From the NCBI GenBank assembly GCA_964601625.1, contig CAZROC010000002.1:80694-144693 (forward strand): 64,000 nt of DNA, given 5' to 3'. Every line of letters begins with the position of its first letter. Position 1 is the stretch's first letter. This document shows positions 1 to 54,553 of the stretch, one piece after another. Position numbers and translations under genes: made by a program. The stretch is from an uncultured Thermoplasmata archaeon (lineage in GTDB: Archaea > Thermoplasmatota > Thermoplasmata > JAGHBH01). The notes beneath the pieces are model-generated. The model did no database searches and was not told the DNA's origin. It was given only the letters and a program-made list of their open reading frames with translations.

Positions 1-5
1 GCTAT

Positions 6-917: not shown

Positions 918-951
918 TACAAACAGAGGCAGATAAAGGAGGAACATAGAT

Positions 952-1902: not shown

Positions 1903-1923
1903 CCACGCCTATCTGGCTACTGA

Positions 1924-2124
1924 CTACATAGCCGCCCGGAAGGTTTTGAGCACGATTATCGTCTGAGCGATATCCCCAAGAGCGCCCATTTTGTAAAGGG
2001 CGTACAAAACTATGGCCAGAATGATGACTAGGATGAGTATCTTTATGAGTTTAAAGATGGCCAGTATTATGAGTATAACAAGGAGAGCGGCCAGGGGCAG
2101 GAAAAAGAAAAGCAGCGGACTCAT
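1924..2124 (-). CDS. small hydrophobic membrane protein (hypothetical)
   Basis: 66 aa, almost entirely hydrophobic (two predicted TM segments). Could be spurious. Confidence 0.25.
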   Translation of the reverse strand: MSPLLFFFLPLAALLVILIILAIFKLIKILILVIILAIVLYALYKMGALGDIAQTIIVLKTFRAAM

Positions 2125-2206
2125 GCACCATGCAACCTCTGCGGTGTATAAAAAATCTTCGTAAATGTTTTCCTAAACGGTTAAATACGCCGGCGGAATA
2201 AAAGGT

Positions 2207-3208: not shown

Positions 3209-3283
3209 AAACCAGGGCCAGATGGTGAAAATATCCTGTGGCGATTGACAAGTTTTTTCTACTCCAACATCAATTACCTCACC

Positions 3284-4303: not shown

Positions 4304-4362
4304 TGGCGGCAGAAAGGAGATGACAGTCAGGAAAGGATAGACTGGAATGATGGGGTGTTAAC

Positions 4363-4671
4363 GTGGATTTCCCGGAAGAGGCAATCACCACCACAAAAAA
4401 GGGGAAAAAAGAGGCCAGAGTCCTCAAAGAAAAAGGAGAATACGTCTGGTACGCGTACGTTGACCTTGAAAAGGGCAAAGAGGAAAAGAAAACAAAACTC
4501 GTCCTTATACAGCCCGGCAGAGAGATGAGAGAATTCTTCGTCTTCCCGACCAGCGACGGAAAGAAATACCTGCTGGCTCCCACGGAGACAAAAGGGGCCA
4601 GGGCGGTGTTTGACCGGGAAAAAGGAAAAATGGTTTTCGTGGACGATGGCGGGATAACAGAGGAAAGGTGA
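4363..4671 (+). CDS. hypothetical lysine/glutamate-rich protein
   Basis: 102 aa ORF with no recognisable domain. Located between fen and pgk. Confidence 0.35.
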   Translation: MDFPEEAITTTKKGKKEARVLKEKGEYVWYAYVDLEKGKEEKKTKLVLIQPGREMREFFVFPTSDGKKYLLAPTETKGARAVFDREKGKMVFVDDGGITEER

Positions 4672-4778
4672 AACTGTGAGATGGGCGATGGATGGGCGAA
4701 AGAGATAATTACCCCCCAACATTACAACCCGATGATACCAAAGCCTTTCAGAACCACAGGACCAGAGAGGGATGAGCG

Positions 4779-6050: not shown

Positions 6051-6086
6051 ATAAGACAGAACGTTTGTTCCCGACCAACCATCTAT

Positions 6087-6381
6087 GCCGCCGTAGGAGT
6101 GAAGTGCGGGAGCATTTCACGAGTAGGCGGGATTTGCGGAGCAACACGGCGGAAAGGTGTTTCCGCCTGTTCGGGAAATGCAAAGCATTTCCCTCGTATG
6201 GTGGAACCCTGTTCCACCTATTCGGGAATACTCTGTATTTCCCTCGTGCCGCCGTATGAGTGAAATGCGAGAGCATTTCACGAATAGGCGGGATTACGCA
6301 GCGAAGCGGAGTAATGCCGCCGTAGCTCATTCAAGGAACCCTTTGGGTTCCTCTGCTTTGCTACGGCGCTATGCGATTGGT
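6087..6381 (+). repeat. tRNA-5'-end-like tandem repeats with multiple perfect hairpins (candidate structured ncRNA or relic att copies)
   Basis: GCCGCCGTA(G) (the first 9-10 nt of the tRNA-Thr at 6382) recurs at 6087, 6248 and 6316 (the 6316 copy matches 14 nt). A ~60-nt unit occurs twice with a compensatory change in the hairpin GTGAA(G/A)TGC-G(G/A)GA-GCATTTCAC. Further hairpins: GGGAAATGC-AAA-GCATTTCCC, GGTGGAAC-CCT-GTTCCACC, AGGAACCC-TTT-GGGTTCCT. Confidence 0.4.
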
Positions 6382-6454
6382 GCCGCCGTAGCTCAGCTGG
6401 TGGAGCGGCTGATTCGTAATCAGCAGGTCAGGGGTTCGAATCCCCTCGGCGGCT
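6382..6454 (+). tRNA. tRNA-Thr (anticodon CGT)
   Basis: GCCGCCG acceptor stem pairing with CGGCGGC, D-arm GTAGCTCAGCTGGTGGAGC, anticodon stem GCTGA/TCAGC with loop TTCGTAA (anticodon CGT), T-arm AGGGGTTCGAATCCCCT, discriminator T. CCA is not encoded. Confidence 0.8.
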
Positions 6455-6620: not shown

Positions 6621-7259
6621 CTACTTAATGTTAATTATTCTCCCTGCGCCGCCTGGGATATATTTCTCTGGATAAAGATATTTTATCTCCGATATATATC
6701 GGGTGCAATGGGTAGGGCAGATTAACTCCAGCCCTTTTAGGGAGGAGGGGGAGTTTCCATGCAAGCCTCCTATTATACCATAGACCCTACCAAATTGGGA
6801 CGCCCTCTGCAGTATGTGCTCCATCTTTGGGTGCGAACATCCGACCATAACGACAATGCCTTTTTCCGTCTGGACACATAGAGATTGTTCTATTCCCTCA
6901 AGCTCGCCTGTAGAGTATATTCCTTCGTAAAGCATGGTAGGTTTTTTTACCTCAATAATTTCTCTCGCACCCTCTGCTTCGGAAAAATAGGAAGTAGTCC
7001 AGATTTTTACTCGGTTATTTAGACGAAGAAAAGATGAGAGACCTCCTATGTGGTCCCAGTGAAGGTGAGAGATAAAAACATCTTCAATTTCTTCTGGATT
7101 GACTTTAAGCTTTTCCATATTTGAAAGCAAAATCTTTCCATTCGCTCCAGCGTCAAAAAGAATTTTTCTTTTTTTGATTTCTACAAGTGCTGAAAATCCC
7201 CAATCGGCTTGCAAATCTCTTCTAAAAGCAGTATTATCGTAAATAATGGTAACCTTCAT
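6621..7259 (-). CDS. Metallo-beta-lactamase-fold hydrolase
   Basis: 212 aa. HxHxDH motif (HLHWDHIGG). A+T-rich. First gene downstream of the tRNA. Confidence 0.6.
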   Translation of the reverse strand: MKVTIIYDNTAFRRDLQADWGFSALVEIKKRKILFDAGANGKILLSNMEKLKVNPEEIEDVFISHLHWDHIGGLSSFLRLNNRVKIWTTSYFSEAEGAREIIEVKKPTMLYEGIYSTGELEGIEQSLCVQTEKGIVVMVGCSHPKMEHILQRASQFGRVYGIIGGLHGNSPSSLKGLELICPTHCTRYISEIKYLYPEKYIPGGAGRIINIK

Positions 7260-8020
7260 CTTAACAGCTCCTTATACAATCTTTTATCTAAGGTTCCATC
7301 AGGGAGCATCCAATCTGGGTGCACCTTGCCTTTTTCTTCCATCTGATAACGAATACAGTTTTCCCAATCTCCTTGGCAATACAATTCTATCCACCTCTTA
7401 TCCAGCTTTCCTTCCTCATAAAATCTCTTCATTGGACACACAGGATACCATTTGCAATCTTTAAGTAACACTCGCAATTTTCTATAACTTTTTATTAAAT
7501 CTTGCTTAAGTTCAGGATTGTAAAGAAGAGTTGCGGGATGAGACAAGGGCAGTATCTTTTTATCTCGCGCTAAAAACAGCTTACCAAAAACTGAAGAAAG
7601 ATCTGCTTTTGAAGGTAATGAAACACCATATTTTTGAAAAATATAACAGGTGGCATAATAACCCAAAGGAACCAATATCTTTGGATTTATCAATTTAATC
7701 TCTTCGTTCAAATAATAACTGCAGGCTTCAATTTCATCCTGTTTGGGCCTTCTATATTTGGGAAGCATGCATTTAACTAGATTTGTCATATAAATTTCAT
7801 GCCTTTTAATTCCTGCCGATTTTAGTAACTCATCTAATACTTTCCCTGAGGGACCAACAAACATTTTTCCTTCTCTATCCTCTTTTTTTCCCGGTGCCTG
7901 AGCAATCAACATAATTTTAGCATTCAAATCTCCCTCTCCACAGATAGCATTCGTTCTGGTTTCGGACAATCTGCATTTCTTACATTCCTTTATCCTTTTG
8001 TTCAATTCATCAATTTCCAT
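7256..8020 (-). CDS. Uracil-DNA glycosylase, family 4 (Fe-S type) with Cys-rich C-terminal extension
   Basis: 254 aa. GEGDLNAKIMLIAQAPGKKEDREGKMFVGPSGKVLDELL is the family-4 UDG signature region. Conserved cysteines at N-term (CKKC) and C-term. Confidence 0.7.
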   Translation of the reverse strand: MEIDELNKRIKECKKCRLSETRTNAICGEGDLNAKIMLIAQAPGKKEDREGKMFVGPSGKVLDELLKSAGIKRHEIYMTNLVKCMLPKYRRPKQDEIEACSYYLNEEIKLINPKILVPLGYYATCYIFQKYGVSLPSKADLSSVFGKLFLARDKKILPLSHPATLLYNPELKQDLIKSYRKLRVLLKDCKWYPVCPMKRFYEEGKLDKRWIELYCQGDWENCIRYQMEEKGKVHPDWMLPDGTLDKRLYKELLR

Positions 8021-13720: not shown

Positions 13721-14530
13721 TTAGAGGGAATTTGTAATGGCATATAAACATACTCCTTTAAGCCTACATATCTCGCATTGAGGCTTTTTAATGCATATCT
13801 TGTACCTATCTTCCGCACAATATGACCAAATGAAAATATCCACTATACCTGGAGATTCTCCTAAATCTATTTCTTTGAAACTACCATCTTTTTTCTTTAT
13901 TTTTATTTTAAATCCCTTTAGATGTTTCTCACAAAAACGTGTAAGAATATCTTGAAAATGAGCTTTTTCTAATGGGTCGCTTCTATCCTTACTGCTACAA
14001 CTATGATAGATTCCGCTTCGGAGTATAAATCTCATTTCATGTGTATCTATAGGGACTCTATCCCAATATCCAAAATCACGAAGATAGTTATCTCTTCCTT
14101 TTTCACCTAAAACCTTAGTTTTTCCTTCTTTTGCCAAATTGTAGAGGTTTTCCGTGAAATCTTGTATTGTGGGATATTCAAGAAGATGTTCTATGTTTTT
14201 CTTTCTTCGATTTCCCACTAACCCAATTAGTTTATTTTTCGCTCCAGATGTTCTGAAATTTTTCCCATGATCTCTAATGAAAGAATCCATTTTGCTGTCA
14301 AAATCTAAGGGTTTCTTCAAGCGCCATCCATTGGTTACTATTAATTCAACTATCATACGCAGCGCTTTTAGAGAGTTAGGGTTTCTCCCAAGTTCATCTT
14401 TGTTGTTTATAAAGAATTGAAGGTCGTCTTTAATCTCTTTTGAATGAGCATTTCTCAACATCCAATTAATAGTTTCTTTGAATTCTTTAGCGAATTTAGT
14501 TGTATTAAATTCCATTTTTATTACCTCCAC
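13721..14530 (-). CDS. HhH-GPD superfamily DNA glycosylase (endonuclease III-like) with C-terminal Cys cluster
   Basis: 269 aa. LGEKGRDNYLRDFGYWDRVPIDTHEMRFILRSG resembles the HhH-GPD motif (VDTHV.R). C-terminal CAEDRYKICIKKPQCEICRLKGVC. Confidence 0.5.
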   Translation of the reverse strand: MEVIKMEFNTTKFAKEFKETINWMLRNAHSKEIKDDLQFFINNKDELGRNPNSLKALRMIVELIVTNGWRLKKPLDFDSKMDSFIRDHGKNFRTSGAKNKLIGLVGNRRKKNIEHLLEYPTIQDFTENLYNLAKEGKTKVLGEKGRDNYLRDFGYWDRVPIDTHEMRFILRSGIYHSCSSKDRSDPLEKAHFQDILTRFCEKHLKGFKIKIKKKDGSFKEIDLGESPGIVDIFIWSYCAEDRYKICIKKPQCEICRLKGVCLYAITNSL

Positions 14531-14703: not shown

Positions 14704-17700
14704 CTAAATTTCATAATGATGTTTCGAATAACTCCCTTCTGTTATTTTTAGATTACCACTCTTTAAATCTCCGATTATATTTTGAATTTGTGTTTCAATG
14801 TCTCCTAGTTCTTTTCCTTCACTTGTAGTTATAAGAAAATCTGTAACGCCAAGTTTCTCATAAATTTTATATTTTTTAAACCATCTATTTTTATATAATT
14901 CATTATTTAAAAGTCCCAGATGCTCCCAATAAAACTCACCATTTTCTAGGAAAATTTTGAAATCCGGTTTTATATGGTACTCTGCCGTAAAGTCTTCAGG
15001 TTCATAAATAAATTCTATTCCAAGCGAATCTAGAGCTTTTGCAATTATGTATTCAATCTTGGATCTAACTGCAATCTTCTTGCCATTCTTTAATTGAACT
15101 AAATACGGTTTAAATGGACTTTGTTTATGACCGAACAAAAGTGTATGAATTAATTCAATTTGAGAATTAATATAAGCAGTTCTAACTAACTCATATAACT
15201 CTTCTTTTAACTCCTCATATACTAAAACATACATTTTCTTCTTTGCTCTAGTAAAGCCGGTATATAGTAATTCACGAGTTATAAACGATGACCTCTCAGA
15301 CAGAACAAAGAGCACATAATCAAAATCACTCCCCTGAGATTTATGAACCGTAATAGCATACGCAGGTGTATACGATATATCCGCTTTCTCAATTTGATTT
15401 AATAATTCTGATTTTATTTCTTTCAATTTATCCAATATTTTTTCTTTTGCTTTAGGGAATATGTTAAATAGGTCATCAATGTCAACAAATTTGACATATC
15501 CTCTCTTAGTTAAATATCCTATCGAGCCATTAGCTAAAGCAAGAATTCTTTTATTTTTTTCAATTTCCCAATACTGGTTTTCCTCGCAAATTATTTTAGT
15601 GCCTTCTGGAATCCTACTCTGTCCTTCAAGGATGATTTGTCTGTTTATCACAATGCTTCCAAACATCCCAACTCTTTTTGGAGTTATTATTTGAATTTTT
15701 TCTAGATTGTTATAATCAAACTTCCCATCAGGTTCGAAAATGTAACCAAATAATTTCCACAAACTTTCATTATTTTTTTGTTTACTCATCTCAAGGAGAA
15801 TTTGTCTTAACTTCTCTTTCAAATCGTTTGCATCTCTAAAATAATTTATCTCTAGTGTATCATCGGCTGATTTTGCTATATCATGTATGTCCTCTAATAA
15901 AGGTTCTTTGGCACCTCTAAACAATTCGGCTAATTCTTCTACTTTGGCACATTTGATACCATTAAATGGAAAGCGTAAGTTTGTACTTAGGTGACAATAT
16001 TTGCTTTCCAATCCCTGATTTTTAAGATGATATATAAGATCAATAAATGGTCTGCCAACACCTATGGGTGGAAGCTGTTTATCATCCCCTATGATTATCA
16101 AGTGCTGGACTGTAGAAGGATTTATTAGGCTGAATAAAAGGCAGAGAAGAACTTCGTCCACCATTGAAGCCTCATCAATTATAACAACTTTTGGATTAAA
16201 TTGCCAGTATCTTGCCAATCTATTGAAGTCATTTATAAATTCATATTGCCCCTCAAAGATTTTTGATGTAAGATCTACAAGCTTAAATATCTCGTTCCTA
16301 CGTTTATATGACAATCTTTTGGTTCTTTCAAATAATTCTCTATATATAAACCTATGAATTGTTGAAATTGTAATGCTTAAATCGTTGTCTAATCCCAGCT
16401 CTTTTAAACGCTTTCGAATCACCAAACTCGCTTTACCTGTGGGTGTAAAAATAAAAACAGGAGCTTTTCTTTGATTTTTGAATATATCGATTAGGTTAAG
16501 AATTGCAGAAGTTTTTCCGCTCCCAGCTTTTCCGCTTATAACAACCAATTTATTGCGAAGTATTTTTTGATAAAGTTCGTGTCTCTCTCTTATAAAATGT
16601 TTGTATGTGTTACTATCTCTAAGTTTATCTTTGAATTTCTCAACATCTCTACTTACTAAGGTGGATACAATATCTTGATCAATGGTGTATTCCACTCCCT
16701 TCACTTTTTTAATAAATTCTTCAATTATTCTCTCTATTTTTTCCATAGATTTTAGCTGATAAATTGTTTGATCATAGATGGAAATTATATTGAATATCTC
16801 TTTAAATCTTGGATTATTCTCATATTCACTTAATAGTAATTGATCAATTTCAAAATCCTGTTGAATGTAATATAAAGGATAATCTTTGATTTTCTCTAAA
16901 ATTTCATCTCTTGAGAGGTACGTATGTCCATCATTTTGGGCGGCGTTTCTAAGGATCAGGGTTATCAGAGCCCGAATTCTTTCCAAGGATTTAGCAGTGT
17001 ACAAAGCTCTCCAATTTGCATATCTCGTGTCAGGAATAAGTGCAATATCTAAGTGATAAACAGAAATGCCATAGTCATTGTTATCTATATCCCAATCATC
17101 GTCTTTGATATCATAAAAGTACTCTTCTAAAATAGAATATGGATTTGCTTTAAAATTTTTGAATCCTTTTTTGCCGATAAAATCAATTATGTTTTTGAAT
17201 TGTTGTTTTGAGAAATCAAAACGAGCTAAAAAAGTGAAAACTTCAAACTGTGACTTTATTATATTAATGGTGGTTTCTAACTCCCCATCTTCGCATTTTA
17301 AAGCGGTTATATTTTTCTCATCATTTAAAAACTCATCTATCGATCCAAACTTTTTGATGATAAACGTCTTTAGTTTTCTAATTATTTCTTCAATTTTATC
17401 ATCTCTAAAGTTATCTTTCAGCTTAATTGCAATGAGATTCTCAAAGCCTGGATACTGTTCTCGCTCTCTCCAAGCAATTTCTAATAATTTATCTACTTTT
17501 TTCTCATAATTTTCAATTTGTTCAATAGGAATAACTCCATGCTCTTTTAGCTTATTTATTGATTTTTTCAGTTTGTACAATAAGTAAATAGCTTTATCAT
17601 GCGTTAGATGCATTGAAACGTACTTGAAATGAGGTATTATAGTTGGGTCATCTACCTTTACGGTTATATCTTCTAACCATTTTTCCTTCTCTTCTCTTTT

Positions 17701-18411
17701 TATACCATCTTTTTTTTCTAGAAATTGTAGATACTCATGATATGGGAGTATAAATGTTAATTTAGGATCAAGAGGAACTTGAAATTGCCATGCGATTTTA
17801 GGGAAAACTGGCATTTTCCTATTTATATCCTCATACAATTCTTTTGGAATAGCATATTCTTTAGGAAATTCTATCTTCTCTCTTACTAAACCCACACCCA
17901 ATACCAAATATTTTCTCTCATCTCCAGTGATTGGATTGCTGTAATTCGCATAGAAAAAAACTATTGATTTAGACGATTCAATCTTTTTTATGTATTTTCT
18001 TACCCTATCCTCTAAATCAGGAGGATATTTATATGCTCCAGTGGTTGTAAATGATAACTTGAAATTCCACGTGAATGCTGAAAAAGGTTTTAATACTTCT
18101 TTAAGTGGCGGAACAACACTAAATTTATCCCATGTGTCTCCGAAGGGATGAATATCTTCTACGTTATATTCTTTCTCCCCAAGTACATTTATACACCAGT
18201 AGCAAGGTGGTGTATAATTTGCATTATCCTTTACTTCCGATATGGATCTTCCTTTAAATTTTTCTTCGATTTCAATATTTCTCCTTCTTTGGATTCTAGA
18301 AGATAAAAGGGAATAATTATCAACACAATAAACATTCTCAAATGGATTCTTACAAACTTTTCCGTTCCATTTGCTGTCGTGCCATGCAAATCTTATTGTT
18401 AGATGTTTCAT
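14704..18411 (-). CDS. Large superfamily-1 helicase-like protein (RecD/AAA_30-like core) with long N-terminal region
   Basis: 1235 aa. Walker A GKAGSGKTS, Walker B VIIDEASMVD, motif VI-like TVHKSQGSDFDYV. Sole gene of its cassette. Confidence 0.55.
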   Translation of the reverse strand: MKHLTIRFAWHDSKWNGKVCKNPFENVYCVDNYSLLSSRIQRRRNIEIEEKFKGRSISEVKDNANYTPPCYWCINVLGEKEYNVEDIHPFGDTWDKFSVVPPLKEVLKPFSAFTWNFKLSFTTTGAYKYPPDLEDRVRKYIKKIESSKSIVFFYANYSNPITGDERKYLVLGVGLVREKIEFPKEYAIPKELYEDINRKMPVFPKIAWQFQVPLDPKLTFILPYHEYLQFLEKKDGIKREEKEKWLEDITVKVDDPTIIPHFKYVSMHLTHDKAIYLLYKLKKSINKLKEHGVIPIEQIENYEKKVDKLLEIAWREREQYPGFENLIAIKLKDNFRDDKIEEIIRKLKTFIIKKFGSIDEFLNDEKNITALKCEDGELETTINIIKSQFEVFTFLARFDFSKQQFKNIIDFIGKKGFKNFKANPYSILEEYFYDIKDDDWDIDNNDYGISVYHLDIALIPDTRYANWRALYTAKSLERIRALITLILRNAAQNDGHTYLSRDEILEKIKDYPLYYIQQDFEIDQLLLSEYENNPRFKEIFNIISIYDQTIYQLKSMEKIERIIEEFIKKVKGVEYTIDQDIVSTLVSRDVEKFKDKLRDSNTYKHFIRERHELYQKILRNKLVVISGKAGSGKTSAILNLIDIFKNQRKAPVFIFTPTGKASLVIRKRLKELGLDNDLSITISTIHRFIYRELFERTKRLSYKRRNEIFKLVDLTSKIFEGQYEFINDFNRLARYWQFNPKVVIIDEASMVDEVLLCLLFSLINPSTVQHLIIIGDDKQLPPIGVGRPFIDLIYHLKNQGLESKYCHLSTNLRFPFNGIKCAKVEELAELFRGAKEPLLEDIHDIAKSADDTLEINYFRDANDLKEKLRQILLEMSKQKNNESLWKLFGYIFEPDGKFDYNNLEKIQIITPKRVGMFGSIVINRQIILEGQSRIPEGTKIICEENQYWEIEKNKRILALANGSIGYLTKRGYVKFVDIDDLFNIFPKAKEKILDKLKEIKSELLNQIEKADISYTPAYAITVHKSQGSDFDYVLFVLSERSSFITRELLYTGFTRAKKKMYVLVYEELKEELYELVRTAYINSQIELIHTLLFGHKQSPFKPYLVQLKNGKKIAVRSKIEYIIAKALDSLGIEFIYEPEDFTAEYHIKPDFKIFLENGEFYWEHLGLLNNELYKNRWFKKYKIYEKLGVTDFLITTSEGKELGDIETQIQNIIGDLKSGNLKITEGSYSKHHYEI

Positions 18412-18451: not shown

Positions 18452-18600
18452 TCCGTCGCCCGCAATTTCGGACAACGTTCTGGGGATATGTGAAGTTTCG
18501 CCGATAGGCGAAATTTGGGCGAGCGGTAGCGAGCCACATATCCTCCTGTTGTCCGAACCCGTAAGGGTCGAAGCGAGGCGGAGAGTTGCGGGCGACGGGC
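18452..18600. repeat. attC-like cassette repeat (copy 5)
   Basis: CCGTCGCCCGCAATTTCGGACAACGTTCTGGGGATATGTGAAGTTTCGCCGATAGGCGAAATTTGGGCGAGCGGTAGCGAGCCACATATCCTCCTGTTGTCCGAACCCGTAAGG...GGAGAGTTGCGGGCGACGG. Confidence 0.75.
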
Positions 18601-18602: not shown

Positions 18603-19850
18603 TTATGTTCTATACTTTTTAATAAGGTCCACATTTTCATTATACCCCCGACATATATCGTTGAGAGGGCATTCTTCACACTTTGGTTCATCATGATTAT
18701 AACAATAATTGGTACCGATATACATGAGCCCATCATCAAAATCAGCTACCGAGAATTTATATCCATCTTGATGTAATTTATAAATGAGGAGATTTGGGAT
18801 TCTTTGTATTTCCACAGATCTAGGTCTTCCCATTTTTAGAAGCTCCCGTACCACAAATAGATATTCATTGAAAATCTCTGAGTTCTGAGGAATTCCAGTT
18901 GCTTTTCTGCCTCGGATATTAGTCACCCGTATGTAATTAACTCCACCTTTACCTTTTCCTTTTTGAATTACGTCCCATTTTTCATAATCCTTTAAAGAAG
19001 CCAATTCCAGAAGGAAACCGGTTCTAAATAAAACACGCCCAGCATTACTGTCGAAAGGAACTTCATATGAGAAATCCGTCCAACCATTATCTTCCGTTCT
19101 ATGTTTTACAAGTCTAAAAATACTAACATATAATTTAGCAAATAAATGGCAGGCTTTATCACCAATCGCACTTCCGAGACCGTATCTTTCATTATCTTTT
19201 AATTGTTGGGCCATAATTTCAGCCGATGGGTATGATTCCAGATAGTCAATTAAGGGTTGTGGAGAGATCTTACGTTGTGATTCTAAATCTTTCTCTAATA
19301 GTAATGGAACACATAAAGGCACACCCCACCTATGAATTGCATAATCCAATACTTGCTTGGTTGATATTATACCACGCATAGACTGAGCAAAAAATAAATT
19401 ATATTTGCTAGGTGATGATTTATTCTCTTTGGCCCAATCTTCTGCCCGTATTTCTTTAATTGATTCATGTTTAGATAATATTTCATCAATTGAAATGCCT
19501 AGCTCTTTAAAGAAATCCATTGGTCTGTGAAATATTCTAATTTCTTGTCTGTATAAACTGGTCGTTACATTTTTCAGTAGCTCTCTAACACCAATCATAT
19601 CTGGACCTTGATCTAGTACAACATTTACTAATAAATATCTGGTCAATATTTCCCGCCTTGTGAATTTACCGTCATATTCATCGAGCTCATCATATTTTAA
19701 AGTTCCATCCTTTTTAAAGTAATGTTTGAAAGGCTCTACTTCAAAAATAGGCGGCATCTCTCTTTCTTGGCTTCCGATCTCCGCTAATCTTTTCGCAAGA
19801 TCTAAAAGGAATTCCCAATCAATCATTTTTATCACTCCATTTTTCACCAT
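18603..19850 (-). CDS. HhH-GPD-like protein with Fe-S-cluster-loop-like Cys motif (putative DNA glycosylase; candidate restriction partner of the adjacent MTase)
   Basis: 415 aa. GLGSAIGDKACHLFAKL and FDSNAGRVLFRTG resemble HhH/GPD elements. C-terminal C-x7-C-x2-C-x5-C (CYNHDEPKCEECPLNDIC) resembles the EndoIII FCL. Confidence 0.35.
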   Translation of the reverse strand: MVKNGVIKMIDWEFLLDLAKRLAEIGSQEREMPPIFEVEPFKHYFKKDGTLKYDELDEYDGKFTRREILTRYLLVNVVLDQGPDMIGVRELLKNVTTSLYRQEIRIFHRPMDFFKELGISIDEILSKHESIKEIRAEDWAKENKSSPSKYNLFFAQSMRGIISTKQVLDYAIHRWGVPLCVPLLLEKDLESQRKISPQPLIDYLESYPSAEIMAQQLKDNERYGLGSAIGDKACHLFAKLYVSIFRLVKHRTEDNGWTDFSYEVPFDSNAGRVLFRTGFLLELASLKDYEKWDVIQKGKGKGGVNYIRVTNIRGRKATGIPQNSEIFNEYLFVVRELLKMGRPRSVEIQRIPNLLIYKLHQDGYKFSVADFDDGLMYIGTNYCYNHDEPKCEECPLNDICRGYNENVDLIKKYRT

Positions 19851-20595
19851 TAACCCACTTAAATAAGCTCATTTGGACTTTAGATATTCTCTCTTTAGCA
19901 AACTCATAGTATTCAGGGACAATTTCAAACCCTAAATAGTGTCTTCCCAACATTTTAGCTACTACTGCTACCGTACCTGAGCCCAAAAAAGGATCAAAGA
20001 CTATGTCTCCCTCATCACTACTAAACAGAAGTATCTTTTTTACTAGTTCCACAGGTAATTTTGTTGGTGTTTTGATCTTTCCTGTCCAATACTCCCTATT
20101 AATTATCCATACATCTTCTGGATAATGTTCAATTTTATTGAACTTATATTTTTTCTCATCCTTAACCACAAAAAGAATATGATAATGACTTGTAACATAT
20201 TTTCTTTTTGTAAAAACTCCAAATTGATATTTCCATATTAAATGGTTTATTGTTATAAAGCCTACCTCATCCAGTGCATTAAGAATATCTTTTAGATTTG
20301 TCCACCCAGAGAAAACATACATACTTCCTGTTTTTTTCAAAATCCTATAGGCTTCTTTCATCCAATTTACTGTAAAATCATAATATTTTTCTTTGGGAAT
20401 CTCGTTATAACCTTCAAGGACCCTCTCCTGCGTCCTATTGTAATTATTACGTTTTGCTTTAAAATCAATGGCGAAAGGTGGATCTGTTACAATTAAATCT
20501 ATAGATTCTGAGGGTATGTCTTTCATTAGTTCTAATGCGTCACCACAATATATTTCGTCAATTTGAAACCTACCTATTTTTTTCGTTTCAGTCAT
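19819..20595 (-). CDS. DNA methyltransferase, beta class (N6-adenine or N4-cytosine)
   Basis: 258 aa. Motif IV DPPF (LIVTDPPFAIDF) precedes motif I FDPFLGSGTVAV, which is beta-class order. Confidence 0.75.
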   Translation of the reverse strand: MTETKKIGRFQIDEIYCGDALELMKDIPSESIDLIVTDPPFAIDFKAKRNNYNRTQERVLEGYNEIPKEKYYDFTVNWMKEAYRILKKTGSMYVFSGWTNLKDILNALDEVGFITINHLIWKYQFGVFTKRKYVTSHYHILFVVKDEKKYKFNKIEHYPEDVWIINREYWTGKIKTPTKLPVELVKKILLFSSDEGDIVFDPFLGSGTVAVVAKMLGRHYLGFEIVPEYYEFAKERISKVQMSLFKWVNGEKWSDKND

Positions 20596-20627: not shown

Positions 20628-20800
20628 CCCGTCGCCCGCAATTTCGGACAACGTCTGGCGAGGTATCTGAAGTTTGCGACCTTGGGGAGCAAACTTGGGC
20701 GAAGCCACCCAACGGGTGGCAGAGCCAGATACCCGCCTGTTATACGCTCCGAACCAATAGGTGAGGACGAGGGAGCGACAGCGACCGAAGAGTCGTGAGC
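20628..20800. repeat. attC-like cassette repeat (copy 6)
   Basis: CCGTCGCCCGCAATTTCGGACAACGTCTGGCGAGGTATCTGAAG...GCCAGATACCCGCCTGTTATACGCTCC...AGTCGTGAGCAAAAGGC. Confidence 0.7.
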
Positions 20801-22279: not shown

Positions 22280-22528
22280 TCAGATTTCTGATAGCATCTT
22301 GATTAGCTCTTCTTTAGACATGTTGTTCCATAGAGATACTTTTGAGAGTATGTCGTTTAGTGTGCCTTTTGCGATCTCTCTGTGTTTTGGCACAGTTATA
22401 TTATGTTCACCTGTTTCTGTTTTCTTTCTTAAACGTACGTGGCTTCCTTTTTGTCTTATTATTTCATATCCTAATTTAGTCAATAATTTTATTAGTTTAT
22501 CTCCGCTAATGACCGGCAGCTTTGACAA
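22280..22528 (-). CDS. hicA: HicA-family toxin
   Basis: 82 aa. GSHVRLRKKTETGEHNITVPKHREIAKGTLNDIL. Confidence 0.65.
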   Translation of the reverse strand: MSKLPVISGDKLIKLLTKLGYEIIRQKGSHVRLRKKTETGEHNITVPKHREIAKGTLNDILSKVSLWNNMSKEELIKMLSEI

Positions 22529-22763
22529 TTGAATGCACCTCTATTTCTGATATTGATAGTATCCTTATATCCTCACCTTTTTCCATAAACTCTCCAAAAT
22601 GTACTTCAACGGCCCCTTTTATATTTTCCATCAGCTCATCAAGTGTTTTTCCTTGTGTGAATATATCAACTCCTATACCTCTCGCACACCAGTATTCACC
22701 GTCATTATATATCTCAAATTTTACGAGCATTTGTATCACCAAACTGTATCGCCAATTAATCAA
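22506..22763 (-). CDS. hicB: HicB-family antitoxin
   Basis: 85 aa. YNDGEYWCARGIGVDIFTQGKTLDELMENIKGAVEVHF. Confidence 0.65.
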   Translation of the reverse strand: MINWRYSLVIQMLVKFEIYNDGEYWCARGIGVDIFTQGKTLDELMENIKGAVEVHFGEFMEKGEDIRILSISEIEVHSIVKAAGH

Positions 22764-22809
22764 TTAACCAGTACTGTAATCATTGTATTTCTATTTTTCT
22801 CAACGCATG

Positions 22810-22975
22810 AGCCGAATTTCACTTAACGTCTTGGGGATATACGACGTTCGCCGATAGGCGAATGTCCCGAAGGGCGGGGCAGTAGCCCCAGCGTATATCC
22901 TCCTGTTAAGTGACCGAAGCCCGATAGGGGCTGAGGCAGGAAGCCAACGGGCTTCCGAAGAGTCGGGGGCGTATG
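22810..22975. repeat. attC-like cassette repeat (copy 8)
   Basis: GAATTTCACTTAACGTCTTGGGGATATACGACGTTCGCCGATAGGCGAA...GCGTATATCCTCCTGTTAAGTGACC. CACTTAAC and GTTAAGTG are perfect inverse boxes. Confidence 0.7.
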
Positions 22976-22992
22976 GCACTTTCACCTTTCTT

Positions 22993-24381
22993 TTATCCGT
23001 TATTTTCATAGGAGACCGCCTTTTTTGAAATATTTGTATTGATATCATTCGATTGTATAGAATCTATCCATCTCTTTGTTATTTGCAACCTTTTTCCAAT
23101 AGGACCTTTTAAAATGTTAATTGAAGTCGTCTCTGGAATTACTGTCAGCGATTGCTCAAAAGCCAACATATAATTTGCACCCAAATTGATTAATATTTCA
23201 TCATATTCTTTTTTAGATAAAAGTTGGGAAAACTCTCTATAAATGGAATATTTTAATTGCTCTGCTCTTTCTTTCGTCATTATTTGGTCATAATTACGGA
23301 TTGGGGTAAGTGGATCTATTAATCCATATTTTGCCGATAAGATCTTGATGTCTAATCCATTTTCATTTGTAAAATCTGTTATTCTTTTTCTCAATAATCT
23401 ATAAATTGGGCCATCATATAAGTTGATTGCTGGAATCAAACCTTCAACATCCCTTTTGGCTTTGGAGCATGAGACAATTAAAAGTCTATTTTTATTTAAC
23501 CACTCCTGGGATTTTGAGAGTATTTTATTATTTATAAATTCCCGCACTTGTCTAAATCTTTCCGTTTGTGCTTTCTTATCTCCACGTTTTTTTGACCTAA
23601 CATCATACTGAAAAATCCAACCTTTATAATCACTTCCAAATACAGAATGTCTAATAAATATATCTTGTCTTTTTGGGGAATAGCAACCTAAAGCAAAAAT
23701 CATCCCGTCTTGATCTATTTCTCTGATTGATGAAAGAATATCCTCTAAAAGAGATTCATCTCTGACATGCACGTATCTAGCGCTGTTTTCTTTCTTTTTC
23801 AACAGCCCTCCTATACCAATATATTTATAACCCATCTTTTTTAATTCTAAATAGCATTCTAAATAATCTTCTTTTGTAACTCCTTGAGCAACTCCCATTA
23901 AATTGAAGGTCCATTCTCTGCGATTGTATATTCTAATAGCCTCTTTTGCACTATTTAGAGTTCGTTCTTTATCTTTGAGATAATCCATAATAATTCCATA
24001 ATCTACACCGAGACTCTCATAAATTTCAAATAATTTTTCATAACTTGAATACATACACCCCTCTTTGGTAAAAACTCCAGAATCACAGATCGTAACAAGA
24101 TTTTTCTTTATTTTTTTCCCTAATTCGCATCTAGATAAATCCTGTTCATAAGGACACTTTTTATTCCCAATGACCGCACATGCTTCGGGATTCACACAGG
24201 GATATTTTTTGAACAATTCTTGAAAGTTTTTATGTGTATTTGCATGGGTCATTAAGCCATATCTTTTCCCATCTGGAGGTATAATTCCACTAATTATCCT
24301 AAGGGATGCTTGCCTATCTACAACAAAAAATGGAGTGAATGAGGAAAGACTCTTGTCCTTACTCTCTGTTCCTTGCCGCAT
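22993..24381 (-). CDS. tRNA-guanine transglycosylase (TGT)/DpdA-like TIM-barrel protein with unknown C-terminal domain
   Basis: 462 aa. ICDSGVFT (compare TGT DSGGFQ), FNLMGVAQG (compare LFGIVQGG), YIGIGGLL (compare AIGGLSVGE). Confidence 0.45.
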   Translation of the reverse strand: MRQGTESKDKSLSSFTPFFVVDRQASLRIISGIIPPDGKRYGLMTHANTHKNFQELFKKYPCVNPEACAVIGNKKCPYEQDLSRCELGKKIKKNLVTICDSGVFTKEGCMYSSYEKLFEIYESLGVDYGIIMDYLKDKERTLNSAKEAIRIYNRREWTFNLMGVAQGVTKEDYLECYLELKKMGYKYIGIGGLLKKKENSARYVHVRDESLLEDILSSIREIDQDGMIFALGCYSPKRQDIFIRHSVFGSDYKGWIFQYDVRSKKRGDKKAQTERFRQVREFINNKILSKSQEWLNKNRLLIVSCSKAKRDVEGLIPAINLYDGPIYRLLRKRITDFTNENGLDIKILSAKYGLIDPLTPIRNYDQIMTKERAEQLKYSIYREFSQLLSKKEYDEILINLGANYMLAFEQSLTVIPETTSINILKGPIGKRLQITKRWIDSIQSNDINTNISKKAVSYENNG

Positions 24382-26200
24382 TTATAATCCTCTCGTTTGC
24401 ATCGTTTGCTTTAGCAGGTATTGGAACTCCTTTCAGTCCTGTTGCATCGTGGCTTATAATAAGCCAATGCCCAGGTCTAAAAGTAAAAGTAGGGGATAAT
24501 TGTTCTTCACCTATTCCAAACGCTTCAGCTACTCTCTGCCGATCGTATGAACGGGGTAGTTTGCTAACAAAATAGGTATGAAGGTTTCCCATAACTTCTG
24601 TGTCCAGCAATGAAGCTCTTTGAGTTGAAATACCAATCCCTAAACCAAACTTTCTCCCTCTTCGAGCAAGTGTTACACAGAATTCCTTAATCTGTCGTGT
24701 CTGTTCATTCCCACCTTCTCCTGGGATGAAGATATCCGCCTCATCAAATAGAAAAAGAGTGTGCGGTTCAATTATGCCTTCTCTCCTTCTGCTTTCATAA
24801 AGCTGATTTCCCATAACTTCTGAAAATACTTTTAAGTCGGAATCTCTTCTGGCAGTAACAATTATTGTCATTTGTCTGTCCGGGTTATTCAAAGCATTGA
24901 TTAATTCTCTAGTTGATATTATTGCATTAGAAGGAATTTCTGCCAGATTTCTTCTCAGCCTCTCTAATGCCCGAATCGTCCTCTCGATAACTCCAGAAGC
25001 AGTTCCCTCTTGTGAACGATGTAACCTTGTCAATGGCCGCCTCACAGGATTTCCAATTTCATTGACGAAATCAAGTGCTTGTTGAAGAGTGTCCGTTGTT
25101 ATGGGTGTATCAAAATATCTTAGTATCCATTCATCCATAGCTTCTTGTAGAGCTTCCCGCACTGCTGGGCCAGCACGAGGATCAATTTGGTTTTGCATTT
25201 CACTTCGAATTAAAGCGGCTAAATCTTGAGCAGGTAAAACTATTCTAGTTCGATTTAACGCTGATGAAACACCCCTATCCATATAATCATTGATATCTGG
25301 ATTGTTTTTCAAACGAGATGGTAGGTTCATTTGTCTTCTTAAAAGATTTACTAAATCAGGATTTTCGCCTGGCCTATTTCCTAATTCTCGGATTATTGGT
25401 AATGGTAAAGAGTCCGTTCCCACATGGATATAATACAGATCATTTGGATGAGATACAAAATGGTCGATTAGCAATCCCAAATATTCGTCATTAGGGTCAA
25501 TGATAACAATGTTTGAATTGTCTGTTGTGTTATTCGAAAGAGAAGTAACCATTGAGGATACTAGATTTGATTTCCCTACCCCAGTAAACCCAAAAATTCC
25601 AAAATGAGTGGTTAATAATGCCTCTTTATCAAGTTTGACGTTCAGTTCTTCAAACTTTTTATGATAAAATGGAGACTCTGGTTGGTCTAACATCCCTTGA
25701 TTTATTATTGAATCCACCATTTCCATGCTAAGGGGTCTGACTTCAGCGCCTACCATCGGCAGATTTTTCTCATCAGTGAGGGAAGGTAATTCGTTGTCTC
25801 TAGGATTATAGGTAAACTGCCATCCAGTAGATACCGATTTGGCTACAATTGTAGTGGTAAGTTGAAGTGGGTGTTCCTCTTGTCTTTCCCAGTCCTCTTT
25901 AATACCTCGCATGGATTCGAATACATGCCCAGGATACGTCCCCTCACCTTGGTTAGCGAAGTGTGTAGGATATACTTGAGTAAGTGTTAAAACGGAATAA
26001 GTTTTAGAACTCCCTGACGGGGGAGTGTAGTTTTCGACAGCTACTAAGTCCCCAACTTGGAGAGCATCCAAACCTTTTCTTGTGTATTGACACCAAATCT
26101 CAAACTCAAATCTGCCCTGTTTGTCTGGAGTCATTTTCACGAGGGCGGATCGCCCTCCATATAGTTTTTCCTCATCAAATGGATTGCTCATTTTAGCCAC
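24359..26200 (-). CDS. HerA/FtsK-superfamily ATPase (HerA-like, DUF87-type)
   Basis: 613 aa. N-terminal barrel (GRFEFEIW...VGDLVAVEN), Walker A GIFGFTGVGKSN, Walker B LFLFDEADIFIP, ISTQRASLLD. Confidence 0.7.
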   Translation of the reverse strand: MAKMSNPFDEEKLYGGRSALVKMTPDKQGRFEFEIWCQYTRKGLDALQVGDLVAVENYTPPSGSSKTYSVLTLTQVYPTHFANQGEGTYPGHVFESMRGIKEDWERQEEHPLQLTTTIVAKSVSTGWQFTYNPRDNELPSLTDEKNLPMVGAEVRPLSMEMVDSIINQGMLDQPESPFYHKKFEELNVKLDKEALLTTHFGIFGFTGVGKSNLVSSMVTSLSNNTTDNSNIVIIDPNDEYLGLLIDHFVSHPNDLYYIHVGTDSLPLPIIRELGNRPGENPDLVNLLRRQMNLPSRLKNNPDINDYMDRGVSSALNRTRIVLPAQDLAALIRSEMQNQIDPRAGPAVREALQEAMDEWILRYFDTPITTDTLQQALDFVNEIGNPVRRPLTRLHRSQEGTASGVIERTIRALERLRRNLAEIPSNAIISTRELINALNNPDRQMTIIVTARRDSDLKVFSEVMGNQLYESRRREGIIEPHTLFLFDEADIFIPGEGGNEQTRQIKEFCVTLARRGRKFGLGIGISTQRASLLDTEVMGNLHTYFVSKLPRSYDRQRVAEAFGIGEEQLSPTFTFRPGHWLIISHDATGLKGVPIPAKANDANERIINAARNRE

Positions 26201-28040
26201 CTCTATTCTGCCTCAATGTTCTACTAAGGGGATTTGCACGATTTAACCTCTCAGAAGACCTAAGCATAGGTTCTACCATCTTCAGAACCGATTTTGCACC
26301 CCGGTCTGCATGATGTAAAGGATCTGGATAGCCAATTACCTCTGGGAACACATTCCTAGTTAATACTGAGAGTATATATATGGTTATTTCTTGTTCTTGA
26401 TTTTCAACTCTTTTGTCTTTATGAAAAAACGGCTCGAGGGTACCTAAATCTTGGTCTCCCTCAGTTATTTTTATCCTTCTAGGAGGAGGATTGCTAGGGT
26501 GAACCAAACGATCAACGAAAATAACATGTCCCATAATCGGTTCCATTGGTGGGTTACGACTTAAGTGAAACTGAACTAGAGACTTCATTATGAGATTTGG
26601 TGGAACTAAAACATCACCGCGAACACCTTGAATTTTAGGCTTATCTGAACCCCAATCCTTTTTCAGTCGGAGTGTCATAAAGACCGAGTCAAATTCGGTT
26701 GAACTCCAAGGCCCATTCAATTCTCCATCAATAAAGGGCAATCTTTCCAAAGTCAGTCGGTCTGTAGCAGGAATAAGTCTAGGAGTGAAATTAAATTCAC
26801 CAATATGCCGTAATACTCCAAAGTAGTGATTAGTGAAATAAGTTGAAGCAGAATCTTTTACCACGCCGATAAACATTACGCCGTTTCGCCAACACTCCTC
26901 CATAGTAAAACGTAACCCGATAGCTAATAAGAACGACAATTCATCTGAGGATAGAAATCTGGTTCTTTCTAAGCCGTTTTCATCCTCATAAGTATAAAGT
27001 AAAACCGTTGGATCTTTCTCTTTAAAGAATTGGTCAGTAAAATGTAAATACAAACGTTTTATTTTGGCTGGAGAGTTTTGATATTCGGGATTGAGACTAA
27101 GAAGGGTCCTTTCTTTTTTCACAAGAGCATCGGGTGGATTAGAATTATCATGTTTTTTTCCATATTTATCACATTCCCACAGGATCTTTAGCTGTCCTAT
27201 TACTTTTTGCAAGGGAATCTTAGTTTCCTCTGCAAATTCTGCCAAATCAAGAGAATGTTCCTCATTTTGGTAGATCTTAGCAATGGCCCTCTCCCATAAT
27301 CTGTGGGCTTTTTTCGAAGGAACATCAAGTTCTTCATTCCACGGTTTAGAGTAACCAACCAATAAATCAGGATACCATATTGTTTCCCCTGCAATTTTCA
27401 CACCAGCAAACCTAAGATTCCTAACGTTGGGTGTTGCATTGGCCAATACTGAAGATAAGGAATGGTCCCATAAAATAAGATGGGGCCTATCCAAACCTGA
27501 CGCACCTCTATAACACAAATAGTTTTCTGCTAAGAGCATAAGGGATGTGTCTAATCCGGAAATTGAGATTCTCTCCGAGTCATTCACAACGAATCTATTT
27601 TCTGGTTCAATGGTTGTCAAATCTTCAGGAGTTAATGGTAAATACGCGACTAAACTACTATCATCTTCAGGCTCCGACTCTCGATATGTGAGCAGAGGAG
27701 GATTGTCCTGAAGACCTAACTCCCCTTTAACTACGTAAGCGCCCCCATAAAAGATTGCCATATCTGCAGTCTCGATTTTCTTACATGCACCATCAATCGC
27801 CCAAAACCTCAATGTGCTACTACGGTGCCGTTGTTGCAGTTCTCGATGTAATTCACGTCTATATGCTTCATTTATAAATAAATTATAGTAAGAAACAATG
27901 TGATTTTTTAGAAATTCATCATAAAATATTTGGAGTTCTCTCGTGCCCTCTTCAATTCTCTGTTCCAACCTACTTCTGGTCTGGGATAAGGCTTTATCAT
28001 AAAGTCCAAATATGTCTGAGATCGTTTCTCTTCTAGTCAT
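26193..28040 (-). CDS. large hypothetical protein, operon partner of HerA-like ATPase (possible nuclease)
   Basis: 615 aa. Overlaps ATPase gene by 8 nt. Weak FWAIDGAC motif reminiscent of NurA DGS. No firm domain call. Confidence 0.35.
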   Translation of the reverse strand: MTRRETISDIFGLYDKALSQTRSRLEQRIEEGTRELQIFYDEFLKNHIVSYYNLFINEAYRRELHRELQQRHRSSTLRFWAIDGACKKIETADMAIFYGGAYVVKGELGLQDNPPLLTYRESEPEDDSSLVAYLPLTPEDLTTIEPENRFVVNDSERISISGLDTSLMLLAENYLCYRGASGLDRPHLILWDHSLSSVLANATPNVRNLRFAGVKIAGETIWYPDLLVGYSKPWNEELDVPSKKAHRLWERAIAKIYQNEEHSLDLAEFAEETKIPLQKVIGQLKILWECDKYGKKHDNSNPPDALVKKERTLLSLNPEYQNSPAKIKRLYLHFTDQFFKEKDPTVLLYTYEDENGLERTRFLSSDELSFLLAIGLRFTMEECWRNGVMFIGVVKDSASTYFTNHYFGVLRHIGEFNFTPRLIPATDRLTLERLPFIDGELNGPWSSTEFDSVFMTLRLKKDWGSDKPKIQGVRGDVLVPPNLIMKSLVQFHLSRNPPMEPIMGHVIFVDRLVHPSNPPPRRIKITEGDQDLGTLEPFFHKDKRVENQEQEITIYILSVLTRNVFPEVIGYPDPLHHADRGAKSVLKMVEPMLRSSERLNRANPLSRTLRQNRGG

Positions 28041-45816: not shown

Positions 45817-45819
45817 ATA

Positions 45820-47658: not shown

Positions 47659-47667
47659 CTCAATTTT

Positions 47668-49689: not shown

Positions 49690-49690
49690 C

Positions 49691-54531: not shown

Positions 54532-54553
54532 CCGGGCGGTTTTTGGGATGTGT

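Follow-up and report, generated by a model that had tools for sequence, protein, structure and literature searches.

A candidate base-excision restriction system built on a MutY/EndoIII-type scaffold and paired with a DNA methyltransferase in an uncultured Thermoplasmata archaeon

Five folds have been listed for Type II restriction enzymes, and restriction by base excision is described in the half-pipe family of R.PabI only (PMC7806768, PMC10273834, PMC12707154). Members of this HALFPIPE family (R.PabI, R.CcoLI and R.HpyAXII) excise adenine from unmethylated GTAC, a 4-bp palindrome, after which the abasic sites are broken by lyase activity, apurinic/apyrimidinic (AP) endonuclease or heat; the family has spread horizontally between archaea and bacteria (PMC7806768, PMC10273834). 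Domains derived from endonuclease III (EndoIII) are also known in defence proteins, as in the END nucleases, where a PLD nuclease is joined to an EndoIII domain that has lost its activity and senses hypermodified bases (PMC12191111), and the same paper refers to a DNA glycosylase, Brig1, with the role of antiviral effector (Hossain et al., 2024, as cited in PMC12191111). This study concerns a two-gene locus in a 64,000-nucleotide stretch of an uncultured Thermoplasmata archaeon (GenBank assembly GCA_964601625.1, contig CAZROC010000002.1, positions 80,694 to 144,693, forward strand; hereafter the window), in which a DNA methyltransferase (M) overlaps a 415-residue protein without any assigned family (X). 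The M-X pair is probably a Type II restriction-modification system with a MutY/EndoIII-superfamily glycosylase as its restriction component, and AGCT is its probable target.

The two genes are as follows, with the conserved motifs of M.

19819..20595, minus strand: M, beta-class N6/N4 DNA methyltransferase (258 residues), predicted modification component (Pfam N6_N4_Mtase, PADLOC MTase_II)
20473..20484, minus strand: motif IV of M, DPPF, residues 38-41 (translation; motif survey of partner methyltransferases)
19972..19989, minus strand: motif I of M, FLGSGT, S-adenosylmethionine binding, residues 203-208 (translation, motif survey)
18603..19850, minus strand: X, MutY/EndoIII-superfamily protein (415 residues), candidate restriction glycosylase (AlphaFold2, Foldseek, hhalign, hmmsearch)

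The open reading frames (ORFs) of M and X overlap by 32 nt. An internal Met at 19826, which is the start used by most homologues, would give X a length of 407 residues and an overlap of 8 nt (ATGATTGA). M was readily assigned to Pfam N6_N4_Mtase (E 2.4e-43) and PADLOC MTase_II (E 7.5e-63), and the solved structures nearest to it are CcrM (9e-29) and DpnA (9e-25). Motif IV precedes motif I, an order by which the translation places M in the beta class. DPPF-type motifs IV (DPP[FY]) are associated with N6-adenine methyltransferases and SPPY with N4-cytosine methyltransferases. Homology was uninformative on the site specificity of M, as the plasmid methyltransferases were at most 35% identical and annotated generically only. 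The GC content of the M-X cassette is 34%, against approximately 53% in the window flanks. An earlier note, made from the sequence alone, had described a beta-class methyltransferase (DPPF, then FxGxG) overlapping a 415-residue protein which bears three motifs, namely GLGSAIGDKA, a GPD-like segment and a cysteine tail; both ORFs, the motif order and the motif positions were verified, and the key residues of the three motifs are conserved in 32 homologues.

No family in Pfam, NCBIfam or PADLOC matched X above threshold. Sub-threshold matches over its last 40 residues were to the EndoIII iron-sulfur (Fe-S) motif and to MutY (TIGR01084 mutY, 1.6e-5), and Pfam EndIII_4Fe-2S matched 43 of the 54 X-family members, under its cut-off. 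Single-sequence phmmer of X against the PDB gave an E-value of approximately 0.8, the named homologues in the protein collection are without exception annotated as 'hypothetical', and searching the plasmid and phage collections for X by tblastn gave no match. The AlphaFold2 model of X, computed with 54 homologues, is nearly all helical, with a mean predicted local distance difference test score (pLDDT) of 93.9 and a predicted template-modelling score (pTM) of 0.92. When this model was compared with the PDB by Foldseek, helix-hairpin-helix (HhH)-GPD glycosylases, nearly all of the Fe-S type, accounted for 13 of the first 14 matches and 15 of the first 17. Among these glycosylases are human MUTYH (probability 0.99), EndoIII of E. 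coli and D. radiodurans, MutY, MIG (1kea) and NTHL1. The template-modelling (TM) scores normalised to the targets (approximately 215 residues) were 0.5-0.57, a range also reached against the same structures by the protein of the neighbouring ORF 13721..14530, which has textbook HhH/Lys/Asp motifs and served as calibration.

Profile comparisons pointed in the same direction as the model. A profile of 32 X-family members, with identities down to 22%, retrieved E. coli MutY from the PDB by hmmsearch in two collinear pieces (E 3.7e-7), and hhalign of the X family against a 26-sequence MutY alignment gave a probability of 95.4 and an E-value of 1.9e-8 over 142 columns. With a single E. coli EndoIII sequence as hhalign target, only the Cys loop was aligned. 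Among 1.84 billion cluster representatives, 137 relatives of X were found in all, many of them fragments, with bona fide MutY at the tail. Since the profile alignments reach MutY and yet only these 137 relatives were found, with genuine MutY at their tail, X forms a small and isolated side lineage of the MutY/EndoIII branch and is no ordinary member of it. Membership of X in the MutY/EndoIII superfamily is thus supported by sequence profiles and by the predicted structure, which agrees with the two-lobed, all-helical fold of that branch (a helical barrel plus a cluster domain). X also differs from MutY and EndoIII, its structurally closest relatives, in having approximately 200 extra residues, no match to Pfam PF00730 and no NUDIX domain, and in being methyltransferase-linked and horizontally scattered where those are housekeeping genes.

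The same fold and profile searches returned no PD-(D/E)xK, HNH, PLD, GIY-YIG or half-pipe fold for X, and no PabI-family chain was present among 63 PDB matches. A hidden PD-(D/E)xK, HNH or PLD domain had been considered and was ruled out by the helical model together with the absence of such fold matches. The earlier note had proposed fold recognition on 18603..19850, and held that a conventional PD-(D/E)xK or HNH enzyme, or an unrelated fold, would speak against a glycosylase; what fold recognition returned was the HhH-GPD/Fe-S-loop glycosylases (MUTYH, EndoIII, MutY and MIG).

In the library of viral structures, the top match to the X model was the endonuclease III of a haloarchaeal virus, and the second was a protein with an amino acid:DNA transferase domain (probability 0.54). 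The latter would agree with X being an enzyme that modifies or exchanges DNA bases, in which case the pair would form a module for DNA modification in two steps and not a restriction system. Such a role for X is highly improbable: the similarity to the transferase is weak, the conserved two-gene module lacks the kinase and hydroxymethyl-pyrimidine genes on which such pathways depend, and modification alone exerts no selection against a target site.

The motifs of X which bear on its predicted active site and cluster are given below.

19599..19616, minus strand: LDQGPD motif, residues 79-84, with an invariant G82 and with D80 and Q81 conserved to at least 90%
19119..19223, minus strand: HhH-like element, residues 210-244 (helix 210-219, hairpin YGLGSAIG, helix 230-244; contains K232), from the AlphaFold2 secondary structure
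19017..19052, minus strand: DSNAGRVLFRTG, residues 267-278, with D267 as the predicted catalytic Asp capping helix 268-277, from alignment to MutY
18651..18704, minus strand: C383-x7-C391-x2-C394-x5-C400, predicted [4Fe-4S] cluster loop, from alignment to the MutY loop and Pfam EndIII_4Fe-2S

D267, C383, C394 and C400 do not vary among the 32 homologues, the most distant of which are 22% identical, while K232 and C391 are conserved in at least 90% of them. The invariant residues outside the Cys loop are D267, P265, G278, G224, K239, G82, G87 and Y150. Judged from the alignment, conservation of these motif residues is not expected by chance. Both hmmsearch and hhalign place F-D267-S-N-x-G-R-V-L of X on L-D138-G-N-V-K-R-V-L of MutY, that is, on the catalytic Asp and the adjacent Asn and Arg, so that the Asp-x-Asn-x-x-Arg-Val-Leu helix cap falls on D138/N140/R143. 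They likewise align the helix ahead of the cluster and the Cys loop, with DDGLMYIGTNYC..P.C..CP....C of X on NQAMMDLGAMIC..P.C..CP....C of MutY, which bears out the EndoIII-like iron-sulfur loop read earlier in the cysteine tail, the cluster itself being a prediction. The first Cys spacing is x7 in X versus x6 in loops of the EndoIII/MutY type. The LDQGPD motif may, by a resemblance seen by eye only, match the SAQATD loop of EndoIII or the LQQTQV loop of MutY.

A further possibility is that X restricts by hydrolysing phosphodiester bonds at a hydrolytic site so far unrecognised, its HhH/Fe-S scaffold serving for DNA binding and site recognition only. The linkage and AGCT avoidance described below speak for a restriction-like function and not for a particular chemistry, repair glycosylases have nothing equivalent to approximately half of X (residues 1-200 and 278-347), and sequence methods found no canonical HhH in it. 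Hydrolysis is nevertheless unlikely. X matched no nuclease family in Pfam, NCBIfam or PADLOC and no nuclease fold in Foldseek, it is nearly all helical, unlike the PD-(D/E)xK, HNH, GIY-YIG and PLD folds, and no metal-binding nuclease motif is recognisable among its invariant residues outside the Cys loop, one of which is the glycosylase Asp.

The occurrence of X was surveyed by a pattern scan over one genome per GTDB species, which recorded 111 species with a relative; 80 loci, many of them from metagenome-assembled genomes (MAGs), were kept. The carriers belong to more than 20 phyla of archaea and bacteria. Archaeal carriers include Thermoplasmata, Nitrososphaeria, Aenigmarchaeota, Altiarchaeales and Asgard archaea, and bacterial carriers include Chloroflexota, Bacteroidota, Planctomycetota, Nitrospirota, Omnitrophota, Acidobacteriota, Myxococcota and Gammaproteobacteria. 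Thermanaerothrix daxensis GNS-1, T. solaris and Thioalkalivibrio sp. HK1 are carriers in culture. X is 45-90% identical across the two domains, which shows horizontal transfer. Of the 80 loci, 77 have an N6/N4 methyltransferase homologue adjoining X; in most of them this homologue lies upstream in the same orientation and either overlaps X or is within 20 bp of it, and in some it lies downstream or on the opposite strand. For the three loci without a methyltransferase, X lies at a contig end in two, while the remaining one (L057) retains a truncated remnant of X with a stop codon. The flanks of the X loci are unrelated housekeeping genes which differ from genome to genome; a conserved third gene was considered and rejected, as every further gene family is confined to at most five of the 80 loci. 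A stop codon or frameshift breaks X in five loci; three of these (L026, L031 and L052) keep an intact methyltransferase, while no intact X without a methyltransferase was found among the evaluable loci of the 80. There is also no intact X beside an internally broken methyltransferase, because the short methyltransferase ORFs all abut contig ends.

All of the partners belong to the N6_N4_Mtase family and none is of the C5-cytosine type. By motif IV, 36 loci have a DPPF partner, five a DPPY partner and 32 an SPPY partner. DPP[FY] and SPPY partners are interleaved on a neighbour-joining tree of X, and they have therefore been exchanged repeatedly. A sister clade, 22-26% identical to X and found in metagenome loci (L093-L134), is methyltransferase-linked in 31 of 43 cases, the rest being mostly short contigs. 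These loci came from a metagenome scan, the contigs recovered by exact-protein look-up being merely 1.7-2.2 kb. One sister-clade locus (L123, 2013..4715) encodes a natural fusion of approximately 890 residues, with an N6_N4 methyltransferase domain and an X-like domain. The conserved pairing for which the earlier note had suggested looking in other genomes is hence seen in 77 of 80 species-level genomes and is accompanied by partner swapping and fusion. The restriction-modification logic of the M-X pair is well supported by this comparative genomics.

Two side observations were made in the sister clade. An extra conserved ORF of approximately 235 residues, with weak SPPY-type similarity and no Pfam family, is located between the methyltransferase and X in 26 loci, and 12 loci have a further ORF of approximately 234 residues.

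The pairing bears directly on whether X could be a repair glycosylase which travels with a methyltransferase and fixes methylation-linked damage, either in the manner of Vsr and Mig.MthI or by removing off-target alkylation. X lies in a superfamily of repair glycosylases and keeps the catalytic Asp, and methyltransferase-linked mismatch glycosylases of the HhH-GPD superfamily do exist: Mig.MthI, from plasmid pFV1 of a thermophilic archaeon, is an HhH-GPD Fe-S glycosylase encoded beside a restriction-modification system, and the MIG structure (1kea) is among the fold matches of X. The few loci in which X decays while the methyltransferase survives would also fit a dispensable helper. Mig and Vsr, however, accompany C5-cytosine methyltransferases, whose product deaminates to thymine, and repair the T:G mismatches, whereas X has N6/N4 partners, no separate endonuclease gene beside it, and host DNA which avoids its presumed site. 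Deamination converts m6A (N6-methyladenine) to hypoxanthine and m4C (N4-methylcytosine) to uracil, both of which are handled by general repair. A repair helper would be expected to be harmless alone, yet an intact X lacking a methyltransferase is not seen at any evaluable locus, and the pattern is that of a restriction gene, hard to reconcile with such a helper. Repair would also leave unexplained the AGCT depletion, the approximately 200 extra residues of X, the sporadic spread of two genes over more than 20 phyla and the repeated swaps between two chemically different methyltransferase types. A repair role is for these reasons considered improbable.

Avoidance of a palindrome in host DNA is a classical trace of restriction activity. 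Observed/expected ratios of 4-mers were calculated on both strands of the DNA around X, with a maximal-order Markov expectation. AGCT had a pooled ratio of 0.44 over 714 kb and a per-locus median of 0.33, and it fell below 0.5 in 76% of the 51 X loci of at least 8 kb. Several X loci from different phyla are almost devoid of the palindrome (0 observed versus 16 expected, 1 versus 26 and 1 versus 21). The ratio was 0.45 at loci with DPP[FY] partners and 0.38 at those with SPPY partners. In the sister clade AGCT, at 0.42, was the lowest of the 136 strand-symmetric 4-mers, the next being at 0.72. Seven control replicons from seven lineages (Sinorhizobium pSymA, Thermus pTT27, Deinococcus MP1, Halobacterium pNRC200, Nostoc alpha, the M. 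jannaschii large element and Clostridium pSOL1) had AGCT ratios of 0.86-1.46, with CTAG low in five of the seven, and 28 control pieces of 11 kb had a median of 0.94 and a minimum of 0.77. The difference from controls was significant for the X family (Mann-Whitney, p 4.5e-12) and for the sister clade (p 1.3e-8). On account of this avoidance, AGCT is predicted as the recognition site of M-X. Because AGCT holds both an adenine and a cytosine, partners of the m6A and m4C types could protect one and the same site. Other AGCT-specific systems could contribute to the depletion.

Methylation of AGCT to m4C by enzymes scored as orphans is widespread in Nitrososphaerota, Methanomicrobiales and environmental MAGs (PMC10609329, PMC6329791, PMC8919816), which makes it plausible that a selective agent acts on AGCT in those environments.

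The host flanks of the window (1..6400 and 52600..64000) show a different depletion, TCGA being nearly absent (2 observed versus 31 expected) and CTAG and CGCG also low, which suggests that a TCGA-specific restriction system has shaped the host genome.

Site avoidance and linkage also bear on whether X might be an inactive sensor or DNA-binding partner which regulates or targets the methyltransferase, or serves an unlinked effector. A precedent is given by the END nucleases, in which an EndoIII-like domain acts as a non-catalytic sensor of modified DNA (PMC12191111), and the HhH assignment of X by hhalign is ambiguous. X would share with END nucleases the recruitment of an EndoIII/Ogg-like domain to defence against foreign DNA. 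Those domains are, however, dead, having lost their catalytic residues, and they are fused to a nuclease and act without a methyltransferase (Type IV logic), whereas X has an invariant D267 and a methyltransferase and lacks a nuclease domain (Type II logic). X also has no conserved effector gene nearby, and a pure sensor would yield neither site avoidance nor strict dependence on a methyltransferase. A sensor role is thus decidedly unlikely.

The preferred reading, that X restricts by base excision, may be set out as follows. M would mark a short palindromic site in host DNA, predicted to be AGCT, with partners of the DPP[FY] type (including M) methylating adenine at N6 and those of the SPPY type methylating cytosine at N4. 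X would flip out and excise one base per strand of the unmethylated site by means of D267. An intrinsic lyase, with K232 as candidate nucleophile, host AP endonucleases or heat would break the abasic sites left behind, and the outcome would be a double-strand break. The analysis shows the fold and superfamily of X, the conservation of its Asp and four Cys, its obligatory linkage to a methyltransferase and the avoidance of AGCT, and we infer the glycosylase chemistry, target base, lyase step, methylation block and AGCT site of M-X. The idea of a glycosylase-based restriction enzyme had been put forward in the earlier note, and it has gained support from the fold, the pairing and an AGCT avoidance which that note did not foresee, the glycosylase activity itself being presumed.

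Several observations weigh against this reading. The Foldseek E-values for X are weak (0.05 or above), and Pfam HhH-GPD (PF00730) matches none of the 54 X-family members even at E-values up to 10. The HhH-like element sits 35 residues ahead of D267, whereas a canonical HhH of the LPGVG type lies approximately 20 ahead of the Asp. Against MutY, hhalign pairs YPSAEIMAQQ...YGLGSAIGDKA of X with FPTVEDLA...AGLGYYSRA, the pseudo-HhH which precedes the real HhH, and the LPGVG hairpin of MutY falls opposite a gap in X, so that the canonical HhH may be missing. With this pseudo-HhH mapping, K232 is not established as the equivalent of K120 in EndoIII, and it is a candidate lyase nucleophile only. The catalytic Glu of MutY has no alignable conserved counterpart in X. 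Against the Ogg2-like family of 13721..14530, on the other hand, hhalign places the X element on the true HhH and K232 on the invariant Lys of that family, at the position of the catalytic Lys of MjOgg. Sub-alignment hhalign runs on HhH versus pseudo-HhH were ambiguous, while the helix count in the X model would fit the true-HhH mapping better. The HhH read earlier in X is thus present as an HhH-like element, which may correspond to the pseudo-HhH of MutY and not to a canonical HhH, as the hhalign comparisons disagree.

The AGCT evidence has its own weaknesses. The controls are few (seven replicons and three loci) and phylogenetically unmatched, and one shared site must be protectable by m6A and m4C alike, which is plausible for AGCT. 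Avoidance is also absent from the window itself, with ratios of 0.73 in the host flanks and 0.82 in the low-GC island which holds the pair, and with seven sites in the cassette; this fits a recent arrival of the pair and is not positive evidence.

With these points taken into account, base-excision restriction on a new scaffold is the reading of M-X that we hold to be moderately probable. The R.PabI family would then be its closest functional relative, both being two-gene Type II systems which act by base excision, as proposed here for X. X is no member of that family, since R.PabI has a half-pipe beta-sheet fold with Tyr/His/Asp catalytic residues and X an all-helical HhH-GPD/Fe-S-loop architecture. 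X is also approximately twice the size, has four invariant or near-invariant cysteines, and has AGCT as its probable site versus GTAC.

The target of Brig1 is a modified base specific to phage, and no cognate methyltransferase is known for it, which would set it apart from the candidate X although both would be defence-type glycosylases. Full-text literature searches, to which subscription journals were mostly out of reach and which did not cover REBASE, found no description of a MutY/HhH-GPD Fe-S restriction system.

The wider claim, on which we are evenly divided, is that X founds a second and structurally unrelated class of base-excision restriction, which would be the first on the MutY/EndoIII scaffold, the first Fe-S restriction enzyme and the sixth Type II fold, recognising AGCT and blocked by m6A or m4C. 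If so, base-excision restriction would have arisen at least twice, with one origin in the repair machinery of the cell itself, and a redox-active [4Fe-4S] cluster would enter restriction biology. The occurrence of X in environmental archaea and bacteria could then help to explain the persistence of 'orphan' AGCT methyltransferases in Nitrososphaerota and Methanomicrobiales. Some methyltransferases scored as orphans may have overlooked partners, since X belongs to no Pfam, NCBIfam or PADLOC family. The enzyme might furthermore offer a thermostable, sequence-specific and possibly metal-independent tool for producing abasic sites or breaks at a 4-bp site.

The pair is located in a low-GC region at approximately 6.5-52.5 kb (30-42% GC versus approximately 53% in the flanks), which contains all three glycosylases of the window and has all of its genes on one strand. 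An imperfect palindrome of approximately 110-150 nt recurs between gene groups from 10.7 to 51 kb, in at least 11 copies and one orientation, with cores at 10735, 11466, 12156, 12821, 13639, 18531, 20722, 22189, 28178, 44785 and 50974; shuffled sequence gave no matches to it. Its architecture is attC-like, with an outer stem (..GGACAAC / GTTGTCC.., R''/R'-like), a spacer, an inner stem (GCGGGTATCTG / CAGATACCCGC) and a branched variable loop, and the copies have single-stranded DNA (ssDNA) folding z-scores of -3.5 to -5.7. The features which delimit the island and the M-X cassette are as follows.

6382..6454: tRNA-Thr gene, at the island end opposite the recombinase
18460..18572, plus strand: attC-like palindrome on the X side of the cassette (ssDNA fold -29 kcal/mol, z -5.7)
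20636..20755, plus strand: attC-like palindrome on the methyltransferase side (ssDNA fold -31.6 kcal/mol, z -5.5)
52507..54741, same direction as the cassettes: tyrosine recombinase (744 residues), at one island end

The M-X pair makes up exactly one cassette bounded by these repeats, and an Rfam scan of the cassette region gave no match. The recombinase has an N-terminal extension of approximately 440 residues; it scores 236.9 bits (cut-off 220) with the NCBIfam model 'site-specific tyrosine recombinase/integron integrase' (XerA_Arch) and 218 bits, under the cut-off, with the integron-integrase model. From its sequence features, the island looks like an integron-like cassette array. Integron cassettes are known to carry defence systems (bioRxiv 10.1101/2024.07.02.601719; PMC12614218). 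The repeat of the window is absent from all other X loci, which indicates that the M-X pair moves by other routes too.

The two other glycosylases of the island are listed below.

7256..8020, minus strand: family-4 uracil-DNA glycosylase (UDG), 254 residues (Pfam UDG 3.2e-36; TIGR00758 174.6 bits, cut-off 125.3)
13721..14530, minus strand: Ogg2-like HhH-GPD glycosylase, 269 residues, in which K144 and D162 are invariant and a C-x5-C-x2-C-x5-C tail is added

Both had been named in the earlier note, and profile and model matches show them to be real. The UDG sits between the tRNA gene and the first detected repeat, beside hydrogenase-type genes; its UDG domain ends at about residue 186 and is followed by a C-terminal extension of approximately 70 residues. 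It is an ordinary family-4 enzyme, and nothing suggests a role beyond repair. The Ogg2-like protein has no Pfam match, its family has approximately 139 members, the family profile retrieved S. solfataricus Ogg (E 3e-4), and its model (pLDDT 95.8) matches Ogg2-type glycosylases with a probability of 1.0. In the window it shares an attC-like-bounded cassette with the PDC-S68 gene listed below, while its relatives in two other contexts have neither a methyltransferase nor a PDC-S68 neighbour. A restriction role by analogy with X was considered for 13721..14530 and rejected, there being no adjacent methyltransferase in those two contexts. The suggestion that the glycosylases of the island act in restriction or counter-defence is thus supported for X and unsupported for 13721..14530, which has no methyltransferase link, and for the UDG, which is an ordinary family-4 enzyme.

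Other cassettes of the island encode the following.

14704..18411, minus strand: superfamily 1 (SF1) helicase (1235 residues) with a RecD-like core, matching PADLOC candidate PDC-S68 end to end (E = 0)
22280..28040, minus strand: cassette with an 82-residue ORF (HicA-like by eye), a DUF6884/YaaA-like protein (462 residues), a HerA-type DUF87 ATPase (613 residues) and a 615-residue protein without a family
39964..44660, minus strand: Sacsin-type-domain protein (1200 residues) and NOV_C-domain protein (367 residues), at the end of a 16.6-kb cassette
44884..50860, minus strand: three class-II aminoacyl-tRNA-synthetase-like paralogues (310, 612 and 673 residues) in one cassette
51059..52348, minus strand: PLD-family, NgoFVII-like nuclease (429 residues), in the cassette nearest the recombinase, with no adjacent methyltransferase seen

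The four-gene cassette at 22280..28040 may be a further defence module. Further genes of the 16.6-kb cassette encode two radical-SAM enzymes, an O-methyltransferase, a GT4 glycosyltransferase and sugar-nucleotide enzymes. The synthetase-like cluster at 44884..50860 is odd and possibly biosynthetic; its 673-residue paralogue is fused to domains of the glutamyl-tRNA-reductase and shikimate-dehydrogenase types, and an iron-dependent alcohol dehydrogenase is encoded next to it.

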